This document shows, piece by piece, positions 2,752 to 29,612 of a stretch of 29,612 nt of DNA. The DNA comes from a virus. Its lineage: Duplodnaviria; Heunggongvirae; Uroviricota; Caudoviricetes. Under the pieces are notes generated by a model that made no database searches, was not told where the DNA came from, and saw nothing but the letters and a program-made list of their open reading frames with translations. Location: IMG/VR virus record IMGVR_UViG_2713896904_000009; one strand, given 5' to 3'. The translations under genes were made by a program, and so were the position numbers. Each line of letters starts with the position of its first letter. The stretch's first letter is position 1.

Positions 2752-2966
2752 CCGCAGCACGTTATTGCGTACAACGTGTCTGCGGCATACCACAAAACGA
2801 TTACTCCATAACAGGGACTGCAGGCCACTCAATATCCGGTGCTACTGATATATCAACTCGGTTCAGCAACACCCGATATGTCTTCCATGCCGCCAGTAAC
2901 GATGTCTCCTCCTCCGTCGCAATATCCAAATCTACGGCATCCTGAAGTGGCGCAATATGCTCACTG
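2752..2966. repeat. direct repeat copy 1 (tail-fibre-assembly 3' end plus downstream hairpin)
   Basis: About 215 bp roughly 85 percent identical by eye to 3803-4016; includes inverted repeat CCGCAGCACGTT-N9-AACGTGtCTGCGG (2752-2785). Confidence 0.7.
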
Positions 2967-3070
2967 AATTCCTGGATGAAGAACTGTGTGGTGACGGTCT
3001 TCCAACCATTCGGCTCCTGCTGTATCGAAGAATACCAGACTATTTCAATATCGCTATGCCGTGGCATCAT
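2801..3070 (-). CDS. short tail-fibre-assembly-like protein (conserved C-terminal domain only; possible remnant or alternative chaperone)
   Basis: 89-aa ORF; last about 54 aa ([45 protein letters not shown]) closely parallel the C-terminus of the full Tfa at 3850-4434; N-terminal 35 aa are unique. Confidence 0.55.
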
Positions 3071-3126
3071 TTAACCCCTTGTAATTCATCGCAATAATTG
3101 ATTTAATTCACAAATAAAACTATAAC

Positions 3127-3795
3127 ATGGTGAAATTAATGAAAAAAAACACAGATGATGGGGCTAAAATTTACACACCACTTACCCTAAAGCTTTATGA
3201 CTGGTGGGTTTTGAGAGTATCAAATCGGCTTGCATGGGGATGTCCTACAAAGGAACACCTTCTTCCACACTTTCTGGAACATTTAGGTAACAACCATCTG
3301 GATATTGGTGTTGGAACTGGGTTTTACCTTACTCACGTACCTGAGAGTAGTCTGATATCTTTAATGGATTTGAACGAAGCTAGCCTGAACGCGGCATCTA
3401 CAAGGGCAGGGAAATCAAAAATTAAACATAAAATTAGCCATGATGTTTTTGAACCTTATCCCGCGGCGTTACATGGTCAATTTGATTCCATTTCCATGTT
3501 TTACCTTCTTCACTGCCTGCCTGGAAATATATCTACAAAAAGCAGTGTAATACGCAATGCGGCGCAGGCCTTAACTGACGATGGAACTCTATACGGAGCC
3601 ACAATTCTTGGCGATGGAGTTGTGCACAATAGCTTCGGTCAAAAACTGATGCGCATTTACAATCAGAAAGGCATCTTTTCAAACACAAAAGATTCCGAAG
3701 AAGGCTTAACACATATACTCTCAGAGCATTTCGAGAATGTTAAAACCAAGGTTCAAGGTACTGTAGTAATGTTTTCCGCTTCAGGAAAAAAATAG
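3127..3795 (+). CDS. class I SAM-dependent methyltransferase (substrate unknown); moron
   Basis: 222-aa ORF with a Rossmann motif-I-like LDIGVGTGFY; AT-rich relative to the flanking tail genes; opposite strand to the late operon. Confidence 0.65.
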   Translation: MVKLMKKNTDDGAKIYTPLTLKLYDWWVLRVSNRLAWGCPTKEHLLPHFLEHLGNNHLDIGVGTGFYLTHVPESSLISLMDLNEASLNAASTRAGKSKIKHKISHDVFEPYPAALHGQFDSISMFYLLHCLPGNISTKSSVIRNAAQALTDDGTLYGATILGDGVVHNSFGQKLMRIYNQKGIFSNTKDSEEGLTHILSEHFENVKTKVQGTVVMFSASGKK

Positions 3796-3802
3796 CATTC
3801 AA

Positions 3803-4016
3803 CCGCAGCACGTTCTTGCTTAAGACTTGCTGCGGCATAATCCCAATGATTACTCCCTGACAGGGTTCGTAGGCCACTCAATATCAGGTGCAGTTGATGT
3901 ATCAACACGGTTCAGCAACACCCGATACTTTTTCCAGGCTTCCAGTAACGATGTCTCCTCCTCCGTCGCAATATTCAAATCTACGGCATCCTGAAGTGGC
4001 GCAATATTCTCACTGG
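3803..4016. repeat. direct repeat copy 2 (tail-fibre-assembly 3' end plus downstream hairpin)
   Basis: Homologous to 2752-2966; includes inverted repeat CCGCAGCA-N17-TGCTGCGG (3803-3835) between the convergent methyltransferase and tfa genes. Confidence 0.7.
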
Positions 4017-4434
4017 CTACCCGCATTAGGCTGTTTTTTGTTTCTTCCGCCTCCCGTATCCGAAACAGTTTTTCTGCTTCTGCATCTTTCACCCAAATTA
4101 TGCCGTTCCACTTCTGATATTCCCCATCCGGCGACAACCAGGTGACATTTTCCGGTAACGGGCCGAGTTCAGAAATAAATAACGCGTCCCCTGATGCCAC
4201 GTCATAGACCGTTTTTTCCCTGTGGTCTTCAACGAGATGCCATGATGTATCCTCACTGTTAAAAACAGCCACGAAGCCAGCCGGAATATCTGGCGGTGCA
4301 ATATCGGTACTATTTGCAGGCAGACCTGTATGAGGGGGAATGTATGCATCACCTTCACCAATAAATTCATTGGTTCCGGCCAGCAGATTATAAATTTTTA
4401 TAGTCCGTGGTTGTTCACTCATTCTGAATGCCAT
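3850..4434 (-). CDS. tail fibre assembly protein (Tfa chaperone)
   Basis: 194-aa ORF starting [17 protein letters not shown] with conserved Tfa C-terminus; start ATG overlaps the stop of the upstream fibre gene (TAATG). Confidence 0.85.
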
Positions 4435-23990: not shown

Positions 23991-24267
23991 CCGCAACAGC
24001 CATTTTGATATCTTCCTGGGTTCTCTGTGACTCCAGTGCGATCTGCTGTTTTGCATGCTGGTTAGCCTCCAGTACTGTATTGACGATTTGCAGTGATTGC
24101 AGGACGTTATTGGTAATGGCAGTTGCCGATTTGGCATTTTGTACAGCCTCATCAGCACGTCTCTTTTCGTGCTGATATTTGCTGTAGTAGTGGTTGGCTG
24201 ACCAGATGAAAGAACTGACGACAGTTAAAAGGAATGCAGCGATAACCAGCTTATAGCTCAACTTCAT
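23875..24267 (-). CDS. i-spanin Rz-like protein
   Basis: 130 aa with N-terminal TM helix (LVIAAFLLTVVSSFIWSANHYY) and coiled-coil periplasmic domain; directly downstream of the endolysin. Confidence 0.8.
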   Translation of the reverse strand: MKLSYKLVIAAFLLTVVSSFIWSANHYYSKYQHEKRRADEAVQNAKSATAITNNVLQSLQIVNTVLEANQHAKQQIALESQRTQEDIKMAVADDDCASRPVPAAAADRLRKYADSLRERSGDTTATQPDV

Positions 24268-24727
24268 TTACCACCCCACCAGCCTCTTTAAATCGGGCAA
24301 TCAGGTCACCGATTTTATGTTCATACTGACCGTAACCTGCACCGGGTAATGAAGCCCATATATTGCTGCAACGGTCGATTGCCTGACGAATATCGCCGCG
24401 ATCAATCATCGGCAAAGCGCCACGCTCTTTAATCTGTTGCAGTGCCACAGCGTCCTGGTTTTTTGGAGAGAAGTCTTTCAGGCCAAGCTGTTTACAGTAA
24501 GCATCCCACCAGCGTGAAAGAATCTGATAACGACCAGCTGCTGTTGATTTAAGTTTCGGGTTTAGTGTGACAAGTTTGCGAGGATGATCGGAGTAATCAG
24601 TGAATAGTTCGCCTCCAACAATAACGTCATAACCGTGGTTACATGTCGGTTGCCGTCCATTATCCGTTCCTTCTGACCATGCCACCATATCGAGGAAAGC
24701 TTTACGCTGGGAATTTAGTACCTGCAT
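24251..24727 (-). CDS. endolysin, lambda R-like lytic transglycosylase
   Basis: 158 aa; NQRKAFLDMVAWSEGTDNGRQ...HGYDVIVGGELFTDYSDHPRKLVTLNPKLKST...RYQ is near-identical to lambda R as I recall it. Confidence 0.95.
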   Translation of the reverse strand: MQVLNSQRKAFLDMVAWSEGTDNGRQPTCNHGYDVIVGGELFTDYSDHPRKLVTLNPKLKSTAAGRYQILSRWWDAYCKQLGLKDFSPKNQDAVALQQIKERGALPMIDRGDIRQAIDRCSNIWASLPGAGYGQYEHKIGDLIARFKEAGGVVNEVEL

Positions 24728-24730
24728 AAA

Positions 24731-25090
24731 TTACTCCTTAGAGCCACCAAACTTGTTACCGATTACTCTCATTGCAGCCCCACGAATTGCATCGACCCCG
24801 ATCAGCCCCACCCCACCACCAATGGCAACAGAAAGCGATTTAGGCCATCCGACATACTCAAGCGCGGATGCAAATGTCAGCGTCAGAGCGCCACAGAGCA
24901 AAATTTCGAGTGTTTTTCGTTTCCAGCCGCCACCACCACCAAAATAGGCAATACGCAAACCAGCCATAACAATCGACATAATCACTGCGCCCAGCGGCGT
25001 ATCTCCACGCCACCAGCTCTGGAACAACTCCAGCCAGTCCGGCCAGGTATTTGGGTTATGAGGCATTTCGTCATCTCTCACCTCGCACAT
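24731..25090 (-). CDS. holin, lambda S family (class I, three TM)
   Basis: 119-aa ORF upstream of the endolysin; LGAVIMSIVMAGLRIAYFGGGGG parallels lambda S [20 protein letters not shown]; two in-frame Met (M1, M9) could give a dual start. Confidence 0.75.
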   Translation of the reverse strand: MCEVRDDEMPHNPNTWPDWLELFQSWWRGDTPLGAVIMSIVMAGLRIAYFGGGGGWKRKTLEILLCGALTLTFASALEYVGWPKSLSVAIGGGVGLIGVDAIRGAAMRVIGNKFGGSKE

Positions 25091-25295
25091 ATCGCGGGTG
25101 CAAATTGAGGGAATAAAAAATCCCCGAATATTCCAGGAGCGGAAACGGGGAAAGGCGTCGCACTAAATGGACCTGTCAGCGGCCTTAAATAAAAAAAACC
25201 GGCACATACTAGGGTCAGATGAAGTGTCAGATTAAGCATCTGGCGATATAAATTCTCGTTTGATATCGTTACATCGCCAAAAGTAACAACTATCA

Positions 25296-25820
25296 ATGGA
25301 GAAATTAATGAAACTATTTATGGTTGATCGCCGAGGAATATACTCAACAGGCGATATCGTTACACCAAAGCAATTCTCCGATATAACTCCTGTTGAAATG
25401 TCATCTCTGGTAGACAAACTTTTTCCGCGCGGGCTTGCTCCACAAGGCGAAGGATACCTCATTAATAATGCGGCAAAAATTTATAATAAAAACGAACTCA
25501 TCGACTGGGGACTTGAGTTTTACCGAAGAGGAGTTTGCCCGCAAAAACCTTCTCGCTATACGTCACTCTTCGCCTGGGGTAACCTGGAGGAGGCTAAACA
25601 TTTTCGACTTACAGACGGAAAACCATCAGATAAAATTTTCATAATACAAACAGATAGTTATCATCGCGGAGATATGTCATTATTAAGAAATGATACATCG
25701 GTATTGGAATTCACCTACAGAATGGAGCTTTACTGGTCAGGAAAAACTTTTAACCCTGATCCAGTCTGGGAATACATTTGTCCGTTACCAGTAACTATCG
25801 GTGAACAAGTCCTTGCTTAA
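25296..25820 (+). CDS. hypothetical protein (antisense moron within the late region)
   Basis: 174-aa ORF; likely start is the second ATG at 25308 (GGAG 8 nt upstream). AT-rich; an imperfect inverted repeat TGGCGATAT...ATATCGCCA-like lies upstream. No motif recognised. Confidence 0.5.
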   Translation: MEKLMKLFMVDRRGIYSTGDIVTPKQFSDITPVEMSSLVDKLFPRGLAPQGEGYLINNAAKIYNKNELIDWGLEFYRRGVCPQKPSRYTSLFAWGNLEEAKHFRLTDGKPSDKIFIIQTDSYHRGDMSLLRNDTSVLEFTYRMELYWSGKTFNPDPVWEYICPLPVTIGEQVLA

Positions 25821-26074
25821 TCCCCTTCATCCCAATAAAGACCTTTCGCGGCACAATGAGGACGGTAAGGATAGCAATAACTTGCTCTGACGTTACCAAC
25901 CAGCGTGCCACTTTCTTTGAATGCCTTATCTCCGTTCTTGAGCTGTGATAAGGCATTTTCAAGCTCAGCTATAGCGACAGCCATGTCTTCGCTTTCTACA
26001 TACAGTGAAAAACCTTTAATGGGTGAACTCATGGTAAGTGGGATCATAGATATTTGATGATGGTGTGAATGCAT
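25817..26074 (-). CDS. hypothetical small protein (His-rich N-terminus), downstream of the DNA methyltransferase
   Basis: About 85 aa from ATG 26074 (strong SD GGGAGG 6 nt upstream; MHSHHHQISMIPL...); stop overlaps the stop of the convergent plus-strand gene. Confidence 0.45.
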   Translation of the reverse strand: MHSHHHQISMIPLTMSSPIKGFSLYVESEDMAVAIAELENALSQLKNGDKAFKESGTLVGNVRASYCYPYRPHCAAKGLYWDEGD

Positions 26075-26124
26075 AAATAGCCTCCCAGTGAAAAAATTAG
26101 CGAATAAAAGCTCTGACACCAGAA

Positions 26125-27177
26125 TTATTTCCCCACCAGTTCACTTACCTCTTTCACCGTCTGGTTAAACCGATCTGACTCAAGCTCAACACCTAACGCC
26201 CGACGCCCCATCGCCATTGCTGCTTTTATTGTGGAACCGGATCCCATAAAGAAATCAGCAACCAGATCGCCTGGTCGACTACTGGCATTGATTATTTGCC
26301 GGAGCATATCCGCAGGCTTCTCACACGGATGTTTACCCGGGTAGAACTGAACGGGTTTATGCGTCCAGACGTCGGTATAAGGCACGGAAACTGATACGGA
26401 GAAATAGCGCCGGAGAGTTTTAAACTCATCCAGCAATTCAGAATATTTGCGATTCAGTGAATCATAAGATGCCACCAGCTGGTGGTGTGGTTGTTCCAGT
26501 TGTTGTTCCTGAAACTTCTCTGCCGCTATACGGGAAAACAGTGCCTGCAACTTCCGGTAGTCAGCCTCATTCGGCAACTGCCACTGACTGGCACCAAACC
26601 AGTGGGAAACCATGTTTTTCTTACCAGTGGCTTCGGCAATCTGTTTTGCCGTTATACCCAGTTCGGCACGAGCATCCCTGAAATACGAAATCAGCGGTGC
26701 CATTATGTGCTGTTTGAGTTGACTTTCTTTTGCCGCATAGCCGTCACTTTTGCCGCGATATGGCCCCTGGTAATGTTCAGCAAACAGAACGCGTTCTGTT
26801 GCGGGAAAATATGCGCGCAGACTTTCTTTATTACACCCGTTCCATCGTCCGGACGGCTTCGCCCAGATAATATGGTTAAGAACGTTGAAACGTTCACGCA
26901 TCATGATCTCGATATCAGATGCGAGGCGATGTCCACAGAACAGGTAAAGGCTTCCGGCAGGTTTCAGCACCCGCCAGAACTGAGCCAGACAGTGGTCCAG
27001 CCACTTCAGGTAATCTTCGTCCCCTTTCCACTGATTGTCCCAGCCGTTGGGTTTCACCTTGAAGTACGGCGGATCGGTAACAATCAGGTCAATGGAATCA
27101 TCAGGCAGGGACTGAATAAAATGCAGGCAATCAGCGTTGATTAAATCAACACTGTTTATTTTTACAGTATTTTTCAT
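26125..27177 (-). CDS. orphan DNA methyltransferase (beta-class N6-adenine or N4-cytosine)
   Basis: 350 aa; motif IV DPPY near the N-terminus (LIVTDPPYF) and motif I FxGSGST near the C-terminus (DFFMGSGSTIKAA). No adjacent restriction endonuclease gene. Confidence 0.85.
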   Translation of the reverse strand: MKNTVKINSVDLINADCLHFIQSLPDDSIDLIVTDPPYFKVKPNGWDNQWKGDEDYLKWLDHCLAQFWRVLKPAGSLYLFCGHRLASDIEIMMRERFNVLNHIIWAKPSGRWNGCNKESLRAYFPATERVLFAEHYQGPYRGKSDGYAAKESQLKQHIMAPLISYFRDARAELGITAKQIAEATGKKNMVSHWFGASQWQLPNEADYRKLQALFSRIAAEKFQEQQLEQPHHQLVASYDSLNRKYSELLDEFKTLRRYFSVSVSVPYTDVWTHKPVQFYPGKHPCEKPADMLRQIINASSRPGDLVADFFMGSGSTIKAAMAMGRRALGVELESDRFNQTVKEVSELVGK

Positions 27178-27225
27178 GGATCAGTAAGCGTAACTCTGGT
27201 AGGCTCACTCTGCTTTTGCGCTAAA

Positions 27226-27245
27226 GCAGTGGGCCGCAGTGGGCC
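27226..27245. repeat. tandem direct repeat 2 x GCAGTGGGCC upstream of the DNA methyltransferase
   Basis: Perfect 10-bp tandem duplication; adjacent hairpin TGCTTT-N6-AAAGCA (27211-27228). Confidence 0.6.
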
Positions 27246-27337
27246 GAGGTTCGCTTGTGACCAGTAAGCATGAGCGAATGGCTGGCAGGTGCTACCAACA
27301 CCCACCAGCCGCCCATTTTCACAGCAGGAAACCGCCA

Positions 27338-27565
27338 TTACTGGCAGCGTCTGAATTTATTCCCGTACCCGCCGTTATCCTTCGCCAGACCCGCCATAAC
27401 TAACTGAGTCAGTATTAACTGGCACCGGGCTTCGCTTACTCCGGTAGTTCTCGTCATCATGCGTGGCGTTACCCACTTGTCAGCAGGTAAGAAATGAAGG
27501 ACTGCAGCGGCGGTTTCTGTCATATCTTGCTGTTTTAGCATGTCTTTTTCCCTTCTGGTTAACAT
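27338..27565 (-). CDS. small putative winged-helix DNA-binding protein
   Basis: 75-aa ORF (alternative start 27541 with SD AAGGG); central segment AVLHFLPADKWVTPRMMTRTTGVSEARCQLILTQLVMAGLA resembles small wHTH regulators of about 70 aa. Confidence 0.4.
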   Translation of the reverse strand: MLTRREKDMLKQQDMTETAAAVLHFLPADKWVTPRMMTRTTGVSEARCQLILTQLVMAGLAKDNGGYGNKFRRCQ

Positions 27566-27661
27566 GACATACCAATAACTCTTGTCTAAAAAGCCAGCAA
27601 GATAAAAAGTCAGTATTCACGACCACCAGCGTGTTTACTGTACTGCACCAGGTTTACAGGT

Positions 27662-27683
27662 ACAAAAAACCGCTCAGCGGCGG
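27662..27683 (-). terminator. terminator-like hairpin (minus strand)
   Basis: Minus-strand CCGC-CGCTGA-GCGG followed by TTTTTTG; short stem. Confidence 0.35.
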
Positions 27684-27805
27684 ATTTAAGTTGTGTGGCG
27701 AAGTAACCACTCTTAACACGATATAATACTTTTTGCGTACGCGTTAGGATTTTTATAAACTATGCGTCCCCATTCTCGCTATCTTTAGTCGGTCCTGGAA
27801 TACAC

Positions 27806-28732
27806 ATGAAAGTTAGAAGCATAGGATTTACAATAAATAACAATAACAAAAACATTAATACCGTTGACGTAATGAATGCTTTTATCAACGCATCAAACAG
27901 AGAACACAGTCGCACAGACTATACTCGTAAAATTCTCATTTCGGATGTGAATGATTTCTATTATGGATTAGTTGTCACATTCAGAAACCAAAAAAAGAAC
28001 TGTAAGTCGCAATTTGTTGATGGTAAATTCCAGCTTAAAATTGAAGATCTTAAAGGAAGTGACAAACTTGCTAATTTCAACTTTTTCTTAATTAAAAAAT
28101 CTAATCTTTCTGGTCTCTATATGTATCACCACGGTTCATGCAGTCTGAACACTCTCTTTTCTCATTTAGAAACAATAAGTAATGAATTTATCAGAAATCA
28201 AAATAAAGAAGAAATAAAAAAACTTGGTGATAAACCAAAACAAAAAGAAGTAACTGCAATAAATAAAAAATACAAAGAAAGACTGACTTTCAGCCTTATG
28301 ACAAATAAAAACAACATTCAGAGTGTTTTATGTCAATTCAAAGAGATTAAAAGGACAAGCTTTAAATTTAATTATATAGATTTTAAAGGTGGACCAATGA
28401 CTGCGCTTGAACAATTTGTTAACACCACCACAATAGATATGAATTTTAATTCTAGCGACAGAACAAAAGTGCAACAACTATCTCAGAATCTTTCAAATAT
28501 TTATAATTCTATGAGTGGAGTTGATAAAGCACAGGTTATTGCAGTAAACCATGCAGGGATAGAAAAAACCATTGATTTTATGAACTGCCCTGTTTTTTTT
28601 GAAACATACGATTTCGATGTAATTGCCGATAAAGTCAATGGATTGACAAACGATAATTATACAACAAACCCTGTTTTTGATATGATAAAAGAAGAAATGC
28701 TGAACGGGACGAATAAAAATGCCTTTATATGA
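27806..28732 (+). CDS. hypothetical soluble protein, component A of a two-gene AT-rich cassette (candidate defence/abortive-infection sensor)
   Basis: 308-aa ORF, very AT-rich and Asn/Lys-rich; preceded by TATAAT at 27722-27727; no Walker A, DxD nucleotidyltransferase or HEPN-like motif seen by eye. Confidence 0.6.
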   Translation: MKVRSIGFTINNNNKNINTVDVMNAFINASNREHSRTDYTRKILISDVNDFYYGLVVTFRNQKKNCKSQFVDGKFQLKIEDLKGSDKLANFNFFLIKKSNLSGLYMYHHGSCSLNTLFSHLETISNEFIRNQNKEEIKKLGDKPKQKEVTAINKKYKERLTFSLMTNKNNIQSVLCQFKEIKRTSFKFNYIDFKGGPMTALEQFVNTTTIDMNFNSSDRTKVQQLSQNLSNIYNSMSGVDKAQVIAVNHAGIEKTIDFMNCPVFFETYDFDVIADKVNGLTNDNYTTNPVFDMIKEEMLNGTNKNAFI

Positions 28733-29267
28733 ATGGCTAATAAATAAAAGATTGAGGTATCAGTACCTTACACTGCTTGCATTCTCGATCCTGGCATTGC
28801 TTGCACTTTACCTATTGTACAGAAACACACCTAAAGTAAGTGTTAACTTTTTTGATTTTTATCATAAAAACTTACGAGGCTATCTCTTCTCCGGTTTTAT
28901 TTCCGTGGGCTCATTTTTATTGAGCCTACATACCTTTGTCATAATAAATTTACGCGATAAGGTTTTTGCAACTCAGGAATATAAGGAAATTTATAGCATT
29001 GCCACTGGTATATCTATTGACAAAATCAATGATAGTGTATTTTATAAACCTTTAGACAATTTATCCTCATTTATTAATACATCAATATTATGTTCTATCA
29101 CAACAGCAATTGCACAGTTCACTATTGGACTTTCAACTAATTTATATGCATGCTTATTTTGCGTATGGCTTGCAATACTAACGGTATTTCTTTTATTACA
29201 TTGCCTCATCATAATCAGACAAAATATTAAAATTTTATTAAAGCAACAGAGAAAAAAAGGGGGGTAA
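28719..29267 (+). CDS. hypothetical four-helix membrane protein, component B of the cassette (candidate membrane effector)
   Basis: 182-aa ORF whose start overlaps the end of component A by 14 nt; four hydrophobic helices (about residues 17-35, 55-78, 124-140, 144-168); basic C-terminus. Confidence 0.6.
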   Translation: MPLYEWLINKRLRYQYLTLLAFSILALLALYLLYRNTPKVSVNFFDFYHKNLRGYLFSGFISVGSFLLSLHTFVIINLRDKVFATQEYKEIYSIATGISIDKINDSVFYKPLDNLSSFINTSILCSITTAIAQFTIGLSTNLYACLFCVWLAILTVFLLLHCLIIIRQNIKILLKQQRKKGG

Positions 29268-29275
29268 TTCCCCCT
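29252..29275. terminator. bidirectional terminator hairpin between the convergent cassette and Q gene
   Basis: AAAAAAA-GGGGG-TAATT-CCCCC; read on the minus strand the hairpin is followed by TTTTTTT, i.e. a strong terminator just downstream of Q. Confidence 0.5.
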
Positions 29276-29279
29276 AATA

Positions 29280-29612
29280 TTACAACATTGAAAGCACACC
29301 ATCCAGAAAACCAAGAGCTGTTTGCAACTCTTTTCTTATTGTCCCATCAGAACACTTCTGCTTCTTTGCAATAGTTCTTAGTGAGATGCCGATAACAAAA
29401 TGAGCAATAACCAACTCATACTCTTCGGGCTTATATTTCCGCAATCGCGCAACACAGCTGTCAATCATGATTCCTTCATCATCATCGCATTGTTGGCGTG
29501 TTTTCTTTCCATGAGGTAGTAAACCTTTAAACCCTGCAGCAACAAGCTGCCAGTCCACACCACTGTTATCTGCTGCAGCCCATGCTCCCCAGCGGTCCAA
29601 TACTTCATACAT
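29280..29612 (-). CDS. late-gene antiterminator Q, phage 21 type (may be truncated at the window edge)
   Basis: 110-aa ORF starting at the window edge; motifs DRWGAWAA, AAGFKGL, QCDDDEG, ARL and CSDG match the Q21-family pattern as I recall it. Confidence 0.7.
   Translation of the reverse strand: MYEVLDRWGAWAAADNSGVDWQLVAAGFKGLLPHGKKTRQQCDDDEGIMIDSCVARLRKYKPEEYELVIAHFVIGISLRTIAKKQKCSDGTIRKELQTALGFLDGVLSML

Follow-up and report, generated by a model that had tools for sequence, protein, structure and literature searches.

The window considered here is a stretch of Caudoviricetes DNA of 29,612 nucleotides (nt) in its whole length (IMG/VR record IMGVR_UViG_2713896904_000009), the last part of which carries the gene of the late antiterminator Q, a two-gene cassette of opposite orientation and, beyond this cassette, the late operon's first part. 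The Q gene (29280..29612, minus strand) belongs to the PF06530 family (E = 2e-42); its first 9 nt lie beyond the window end, its stop codon occupies 29280-29282, and the full-length protein comprises 113 amino acids (aa) in phage mEp460_4F5. The cassette (27806-29267, plus strand) separates Q from a 75-aa open reading frame (ORF; 27338-27565, minus strand) of the late operon, and it is antisense to both Q and the lysis genes, which agrees with what a sequence-only reading of this DNA had stated about the late operon. Phages mEp460_4F5 and vB_EcoS-569R4 share 99% identity with the window across the entire region described here. The analysis indicates, with a probability of roughly 78%, that the late module composed of the promoter pR', the Q-loading region and the terminator tR' is intact but displaced, that the cassette is located between Q and pR' in a cargo slot, and that these parts function in the steps proposed below.

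The sequence-only reading had recognised no convincing promoter just past Q, and none emerged here: a sigma-70 consensus scan yielded no minus-strand site in 29200-29280, and a search of the window with a profile of the conserved late-promoter block revealed no copy near Q. The only match of the profile in the window is a minus-strand copy at 27663-27757 (E = 8.6e-28). The late module itself spans 27664-27746 on the minus strand, about 85 base pairs (bp), and lies 1,534 nt beyond the Q stop codon, so that the suggested position of the cassette between Q and pR' is supported. It starts with the -35 region TAACGC (27746-27741) and the invariant core TAACGCGTACGCAAAAA (together 27730..27746, minus strand), a candidate Q-binding element, and a 17-nt spacer leads from TAACGC to the -10 hexamer TATCGT (27723-27718) and a predicted start A at about 27711 (together 27711..27723, minus strand), which were assigned by conservation and by homology to phage 933W. 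The discriminator and initial transcribed region GTTAAGAGTGGTTACTTCGCCACAC (27693..27717, minus strand) is nearly invariant across all four Q subfamilies, and 933W annotates the Q-utilisation site (qut) inside the equivalent stretch. The predicted RNA of about 47 nt would end at the hairpin tR' (27664..27683, minus strand), a promoter-proximal intrinsic terminator with the stem CCGC..GCGG at 27683-27670 followed by T6 at 27669-27664. A sigma-70 consensus scan of 26500-29612 returned promoter-like sites at chance level only and missed pR', because the -35 of this promoter is weak.

For comparison, 240 loci were fetched from IMG/VR, 80 for each of the window-type, QuuD-type and cdtI-type subfamilies of the Q clade. 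The block turned up in 73/80 window-type loci and in 76/80 and 78/80 loci of the other two subfamilies, and the distinct block sequences numbered 133 (49 window-type, 62 cdtI-type and 22 from the third subfamily). A TAnnnT hexamer with variable inner bases stands directly before GTTAAGAG in 49/49, 62/62 and 22/22 of them, namely in all 133. The 16-nt core between the -35 and the -10 is invariant within a Q subfamily and differs among the subfamilies, with CGCGTACGCAAA occurring in 49/49 window-type sequences, CGCGGTCCGCA in 62/62 cdtI-type sequences and TACGTACGTAAA in 21 of the 22 others, and with zero cross-matches. Since the core changes with the Q subfamily, it is regarded as a candidate Q-binding element that would be specific for the cognate Q, and its position between the -35 and the -10 matches that of the Q-binding element (QBE) of phage 21 (PMC6606751). 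This co-variation of core and Q provides testable Q-binding sites for three unstudied Q subfamilies.

Wherever it was found (227 loci), the block stands at a distance of 600-4,600 bp from the Q stop codon and in no case next to it, which means that not all members of the Q family have promoter and Q side by side, as phage 21 and 933W do; the displaced layout of pR' is the rule for this Q subfamily and not an exception. Two matches of a pattern search that looked like empty sites, at 248 bp and at -1 bp, were spurious according to the profile search. The earlier remark that pR' is absent from the place usual for a Q21-type phage calls for two qualifications: the window Q matches the solved Q21 only weakly (E = 3.6e-4 over 80 residues), and the displaced layout is the rule of its own subfamily. 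The window Q is 45% identical to QuuD and likewise 45% to Q933W, while the Q of SfII is 91% identical to it. Downstream of the SfII Q come first another antisense cassette of two genes, unlike that of the window, and then a block, about 95 bp long, to which window positions 27662-27760 can be aligned; the same block follows other, differing antisense cargoes in Stx2a_1447, Stx1_14040, cdtI and 434B/DLP12. The SfII Q protein (2941-3252 of the SfII locus) also lacks 13 residues which every other member of the clade in the alignment has.

The homologue of the block in 933W is annotated as pR' (-35 TTTACG, -10 TATCAT), qut and a possible rho-independent terminator. For the prophage Sp5 of strain Sakai, Sy et al. 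(PMC7547250) reported a PR' start obtained by differential RNA sequencing and a tR' 3' end obtained by Term-seq, which are 258 nt apart. When this distance is counted back from the U-tract in the Sakai sequence, which is identical to the 933W block, an A 7 nt after TATCAT is reached; transferred to the window, this puts the start 7 nt past the -10, at about 27711. The block was also considered as a 3' fragment of the small RNA (sRNA) StxS, which was rejected since the 933W annotation shows it to be the promoter-proximal part, and HnrS, a multicopy prophage sRNA (PMC13502914), could be neither linked nor excluded because its stated location is unspecific.

Several features of the module weigh against the assignment. 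The window-type -35 is a poor match to the consensus, whether it is read as CTAACG (3/6 with an 18-nt spacer) or as TAACGC (1/6 with 17 nt). No convincing candidate for a sigma-dependent pause element was found in the conserved initial transcribed region, where GTTAAGAGTGGTTAC holds TAAGAG and TACTTC; neither of them clearly resembles a -10 hexamer at the spacing from the favoured start that would be expected. A second TAnnnT lies 5 nt upstream of the pR' -10 in 41/49 window-type sequences, so that the exact start is uncertain by about 5 nt. The tR' stem of the window has 4-5 pairs only, and the first hairpin of Sp5 must be read through at least partly, because the RNA ends reported there lie 258 nt downstream of PR'. 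With respect to the second TAnnnT, a start from this upstream hexamer would give a geometry like that of phage 21, with TAAGAG as the pause element; as the pR' -10, however, this upstream (-11) hexamer is disfavoured, as it is missing in 933W, QuuD and most cdtI-type loci, and the downstream hexamer is favoured because it is the sole one present there. The plus strand of the upstream hexamer region (27718-27728) reads a perfect TATAAT at 27722-27727, which could be an alternative -10 or belong to a promoter of the opposite strand.

Both minus-strand hairpins to which the sequence-only reading had drawn attention are present, and they differ in their role. The one directly after Q (29252..29275, minus strand) is an intrinsic terminator facing transcripts that leave Q, with the stem AGGGGG/CCCCCT at 29275-29258 and a T-run at 29257-29252. 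It begins 4 nt past the Q stop codon and lies within the last codons of gene B, the second cassette gene, whose stop codon (29265-29267) it overlaps, and its folding energy amounts to -11.4 to -13 kcal/mol (z = -2.2). A GC-rich hairpin at the junction of Q and cassette is kept with different sequence in the homologues from Salmonella, Yersinia and Klebsiella, and most Q/cargo junctions, including those of many other cargo types, also show GC-rich hairpins followed by T-runs, be it on one strand or on both. Of the 133 distinct related sequences, 108 have a hairpin with a T-run at the position of tR'; over 40 different stems occur among them, the corresponding RNAs are 46-61 nt long, and the equivalent is annotated as a terminator in Ayreon and as a possible rho-independent terminator in 933W. 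Terminator-like sites in 26500-29612 numbered 9, compared with 2.5 +/- 1.6 in shuffled sequences, but the conservation is a stronger argument than this excess for the terminators being real. The description of the cassette as insulated holds for one side: the Q-proximal hairpin can plausibly shield it from transcripts leaving Q, whereas the hairpin at 27664-27683 is the terminator overridden by Q (tR') and no insulator of the cassette.

The gap from the Q stop codon to pR' is a cargo slot that is filled with many different genes, which are mostly anti-phage genes in related phages. From the Q stop codon to the block, the loci hold no fewer than 35 gene architectures and 64 protein clusters; in two of the three locus sets, 193 ORFs reach 100 aa or more, and 187 of them run antisense to Q. 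The cargoes identified with PADLOC and Pfam include Kiwa (KwaA 1.7e-82, KwaB 2.3e-126), PD-Lambda-5 with a methylase (PD-Lambda-5_A 3.5e-74), an NsnA/PD-T4-2-like DUF262 protein (NsnA 1.1e-45) with a cytosine methylase, and a ThsB-like TIR protein with a caspase, together with PDC-S42, PDC-M53, RelA_SpoT and NA37-like proteins. The nmpC/lc porin is the cargo in all QuuD-type loci, and many slot cargoes have no match at all. Among the cargoes that could be identified, known or candidate defence systems prevail, as judged by inspection and not by a formal enrichment statistic. No description of the slot was found in the literature searched, which does not disprove that one exists.

Several frequent slot cargoes, seen in L025, L049, L051 and related IMG/VR loci, pair an NA37-like protein, of a nucleoid-associated family, with a 330-404-aa partner (one of which bears a RelA_SpoT domain); no PADLOC model matched these pairs, and they are candidates for new defence systems. 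In Stx2a_1447 (902-2465) and Stx1_14040 (340-2447), an antisense cargo of two or three genes of unknown function is located between Q and the pR' block, and the block of both lies upstream of stx. Cargo at this place in Stx phages bears on the comparison of Q alleles and toxin expression. As the slot is precisely bounded by the Q stop codon and the 16-nt core and most of its layouts are of unknown function, it offers a practical site for mining anti-phage systems in Enterobacterales.

One flank of the slot appears to supply a promoter for the cargo as well. When read on the cargo strand, the invariant core gives TTGCGT, and among 39 distinct cargo-proximal sequences a TAnnnT follows this hexamer at 17 nt in 28 and at 18 nt in 4, with no more than 4 at any other offset; the 17-nt peak holds over unrelated cargoes. 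In the window, the putative cassette promoter (27733..27768, plus strand) would consist of the -35 TTGCGT (27733-27738), a 17-nt spacer and the -10 TAAACT (27756-27761), with a predicted start at about 27768, which is 38 nt ahead of the ATG of the first cassette gene, A. The motif statistics suggest a shared cargo promoter overlapping pR', in which each -35 would lie inside the opposite promoter, since the divergent starts are about 57 bp apart. Two points tell against this promoter: the evidence for it consists of motif statistics, and in the cdtI-type loci (L176-L255) the TAnnnT peak occurs at offset 32 (34/53 sequences) and not at 17. The latter implies that the conserved flank extends further in the cdtI-type subfamily, and it may reflect a differing design there or mean that the 17-nt peak is partly shared ancestry of the flank. 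From the geometry, binding of Q might shut the cargo promoter. A rather unlikely extension of this idea is that the flank acts as a regulatory socket, in which the Q-binding core doubles as the -35 of the cargo and occupancy by Q turns a defence cargo off at late commitment; if it were true, any inserted cassette would be expressed in the lysogen with a built-in self-immunity, whatever the cargo.

The cassette of the window is 1.46 kb long with a GC content of 30.6%, compared with 50% for the window, and its two reading frames overlap. Gene A (27806..28732, plus strand) encodes a 308-aa protein of phrog_2802 (function unknown) with a predicted fold like that of lambda RexA/RdgC, and gene B (28719..29267, plus strand) encodes a 182-aa protein with 3-4 membrane helices predicted from hydropathy and no family match. 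Neither protein has a match in PADLOC, Pfam, NCBIfam or a PDB sequence profile. No relation of gene A to the other cargo proteins, including KwaB and the NA37-like proteins, was detected by BLASTP or hhalign, and its profile is unrelated to all other cargo families. The gene A family comprises 36 clusters, which come from Enterobacterales only among the named sources, and in 4/4 contexts from Salmonella, Yersinia and Klebsiella a partner of 176-182 aa directly follows gene A. Members of the cassette family, with protein identities of 49-70%, are convergent with a PF06530 Q in four genera. Of 5,426 complete E. coli genomes, 219 contain the cassette together with its flanks, annotated only as hypothetical proteins. 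In one genome (NZ_CP022730.1, strain SA186), the match to the cassette region is split in two by an insertion sequence of the ISApl1 family.

The way in which these elements may work together can be outlined as follows. In the lysogen, pR' would fire and its 47-nt RNA would stop at tR', as expected from the homology to 933W/Sp5, in which the promoter is constitutive, while the conserved motifs suggest that the cassette is transcribed in the opposite direction from its own promoter, the -35 of which lies inside the pR' spacer. After induction, the transcripts that made Q would meet the hairpin at 29252-29275, which is expected to limit antisense read-through into the cassette. By analogy with the Q21 mechanism, Q would then bind the subfamily-specific 16-nt core and load onto RNA polymerase paused just past the start, and the Q-loaded polymerase would pass tR' into the methylase, lysis and structural genes. 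Since the predicted start at about 27711 lies beyond the cassette as seen from Q, late transcription would head off in the other direction and leave the cassette untouched, so that the earlier proposal of late transcription reading antisense across the cassette and silencing it in lytic growth is not upheld. With the late switch intact and the cassette upstream of the late transcript, expression of the cassette in the lysogen without co-induction with the lysis genes is predicted.

Other explanations of the late region have been considered against this scheme. It is very improbable that the block is merely an sRNA gene or terminator common to lambdoid phages, with the true late promoter elsewhere, for instance on the minus strand within the cassette or just upstream of the 75-aa ORF. 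Phages with an unrelated Q (Ayreon, mEp460, Stx2c phages) do have in common the hairpin and all that lies downstream from there, but this homology ends at the hairpin (27686), and the -35, -10 and core are common only to phages with a PF06530-type Q and co-vary with the Q subfamily. The weak -35 and the minus-strand promoter-like sites listed by the consensus scan within the cassette could also be cited in its favour, yet these sites are at chance level (8 found, 9.0 +/- 3.0 expected), and no other conserved non-coding element exists from Q to the lysis genes. The short pR' RNA of Stx phages is itself reported to be a regulatory sRNA (PMC7547250), which would favour this reading; against it, the equivalent of the block is the annotated pR' of 933W, and the published Sakai PR'-to-tR' distance fits it. 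It is likewise improbable, though somewhat less so, that antiterminated early transcription is the main route to the late genes, passing in antisense through Q, the hairpin at 29252-29275 and the whole cassette and thereby silencing the cassette in lytic growth. In lambda, the N-modified polymerase from pR reads through Q and beyond, and a terminator after Q would matter only if transcripts reach that point; the early region itself lies outside the window. Expression of phi80 Q lowered the defence protein TaiEcA, for which an influence of the late-operon transcript was suggested by its authors (PMC11364771). Against this stands the intact Q-type promoter module downstream of the cassette, which is under strong purifying selection, and such an intact, selected module beyond the cassette implies that Q-dependent late transcription starts there; early read-through may add to transcription from pR' but cannot replace it.

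As to the function of the cassette itself, the classical model describes RexB as a membrane protein. RexA binds DNA, has an RdgC-like structure and acts with RexB in phage exclusion (PMC11077077). Because of the RexA-like fold and the membrane partner, a RexAB-like pair is the best guess, and the cassette is most likely, with moderate confidence, an abortive-infection pair of this kind, in which the structural model of A would point to a RexA-fold sensor and B may be a small membrane effector. What speaks against such a pair is that the RexA fold match spans 145/308 residues of gene A, that the C-terminal half of the model has a pLDDT of about 60, and that no sequence-level link of gene A or B to Rex or to PADLOC models was found. 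It is possible, but distinctly less probable, that the cassette does not serve defence and is another lysogenic-conversion or phage-fitness module, for example one acting at the surface or membrane, as does the nmpC/lc porin found in the same slot of DLP12-type prophages. In line with this, a porin gene occupies the slot of the QuuD type, models in PADLOC, Pfam or NCBIfam match neither A nor B, and RexA also affects the lysis-lysogeny switch of lambda independently of exclusion (PMC11077077); on the other hand, known or candidate defence systems dominate the identifiable slot cargoes, and a RexA-like fold, a small membrane partner, a low GC content and a two-gene overlap are typical of abortive-infection pairs.

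The late operon start served by pR' (24251..27565, minus strand) has the gene order annotated in mEp460_4F5, cdtI and Ayreon. After the 75-aa ORF it carries a DNA methylase (26125-27177, minus strand), a holin (24731-25090, minus strand) and a 158-aa ORF (24251-24727, minus strand) at the position of the lysin gene R, where a lysin is annotated in mEp460_4F5 and SfII; the 158-aa ORF has no Pfam match, and its assignment as a lysin is by position only. The methylase and the holin are separated by an insert of roughly 1 kb (25091-26124), which the near-identical mEp460_4F5 does not have and which encodes a plus-strand 174-aa ORF (25296-25820; phrog_5663, function unknown). This antisense ORF sits within the late transcript, so that late transcription would cross it, unlike the cassette between Q and pR'. 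Rfam searches at gathering thresholds gave no match in the Q-cassette region; elsewhere in the window, they revealed a complete transfer-messenger RNA gene (294 bits) and a match to the IS009 RNA family (202 bits), at 698-1060 and 3893-4091, the former gene being situated at one end of the window.

Among the known systems, 933W and Sakai Sp5 share the Q family with the window and show nucleotide homology over the -10, discriminator, initial transcribed region and first hairpin. They differ in that their promoter overlaps the Q stop codon; moreover, 933W carries no cargo, its -35 TTTACG and its spacer core ATCGTAAAAA differ from those of the window, and the reported 3' end of Sp5 is located at a second terminator, 258 nt from the start. 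The sequence-only reading had pointed to the Q-S intervals of phage 21 and DLP12-like prophages; the phage 21 -35 begins 7 nt past Q, and the DLP12 block lies beyond an antisense porin gene. Phage 21 possesses a Q of the same Pfam family and the same compact order, in which the -35 is followed by a QBE located in the spacer, the -10, the start and, within about 50 nt, a terminator. Its regulatory positions were taken from the GenBank annotation, in which the -35 stands 7 nt after Q, the pause element at +2 and the terminator from about +3 to +50. Unlike the ACGC-GT-ACGC of the window, its QBE is composed of two TGAGCA subsites 8 bp apart, and no pause element of the TAAGCT type was confirmed in the window. 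DLP12, PA-2 and 434B likewise place an antisense accessory gene between a PF06530 Q and the same promoter block, in the order quuD - nmpC (lc porin) - lysis genes, but one porin gene, driven by a distant promoter of its own, makes up their entire cargo, and their Q subfamily and spacer core are different.

For the cassette, the counterpart is RexA/RexB of lambda, with which it would have in common a protein of predicted RexA/RdgC-like fold, a small and probably polytopic membrane protein encoded next to it, the order of the two genes and a lambdoid prophage as carrier. RexB, with 144 aa, is shorter than the product of gene B (182 aa), no sequence similarity was found between the two systems, and the rex genes of lambda are located in the immunity region and transcribed with cI. 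For the slot, P2-like phages and P4-like satellites offer the nearest precedent with their defence hotspots (Rousset et al. 2022, PMC9122126), which also constitute a fixed slot with conserved flanks and many unrelated anti-phage systems, including Kiwa. The hotspots belong to another phage group and another site, whereas the slot described here parts a regulator from its target promoter, and one of its flanks appears, from the conserved motifs, to supply the shared cargo promoter.

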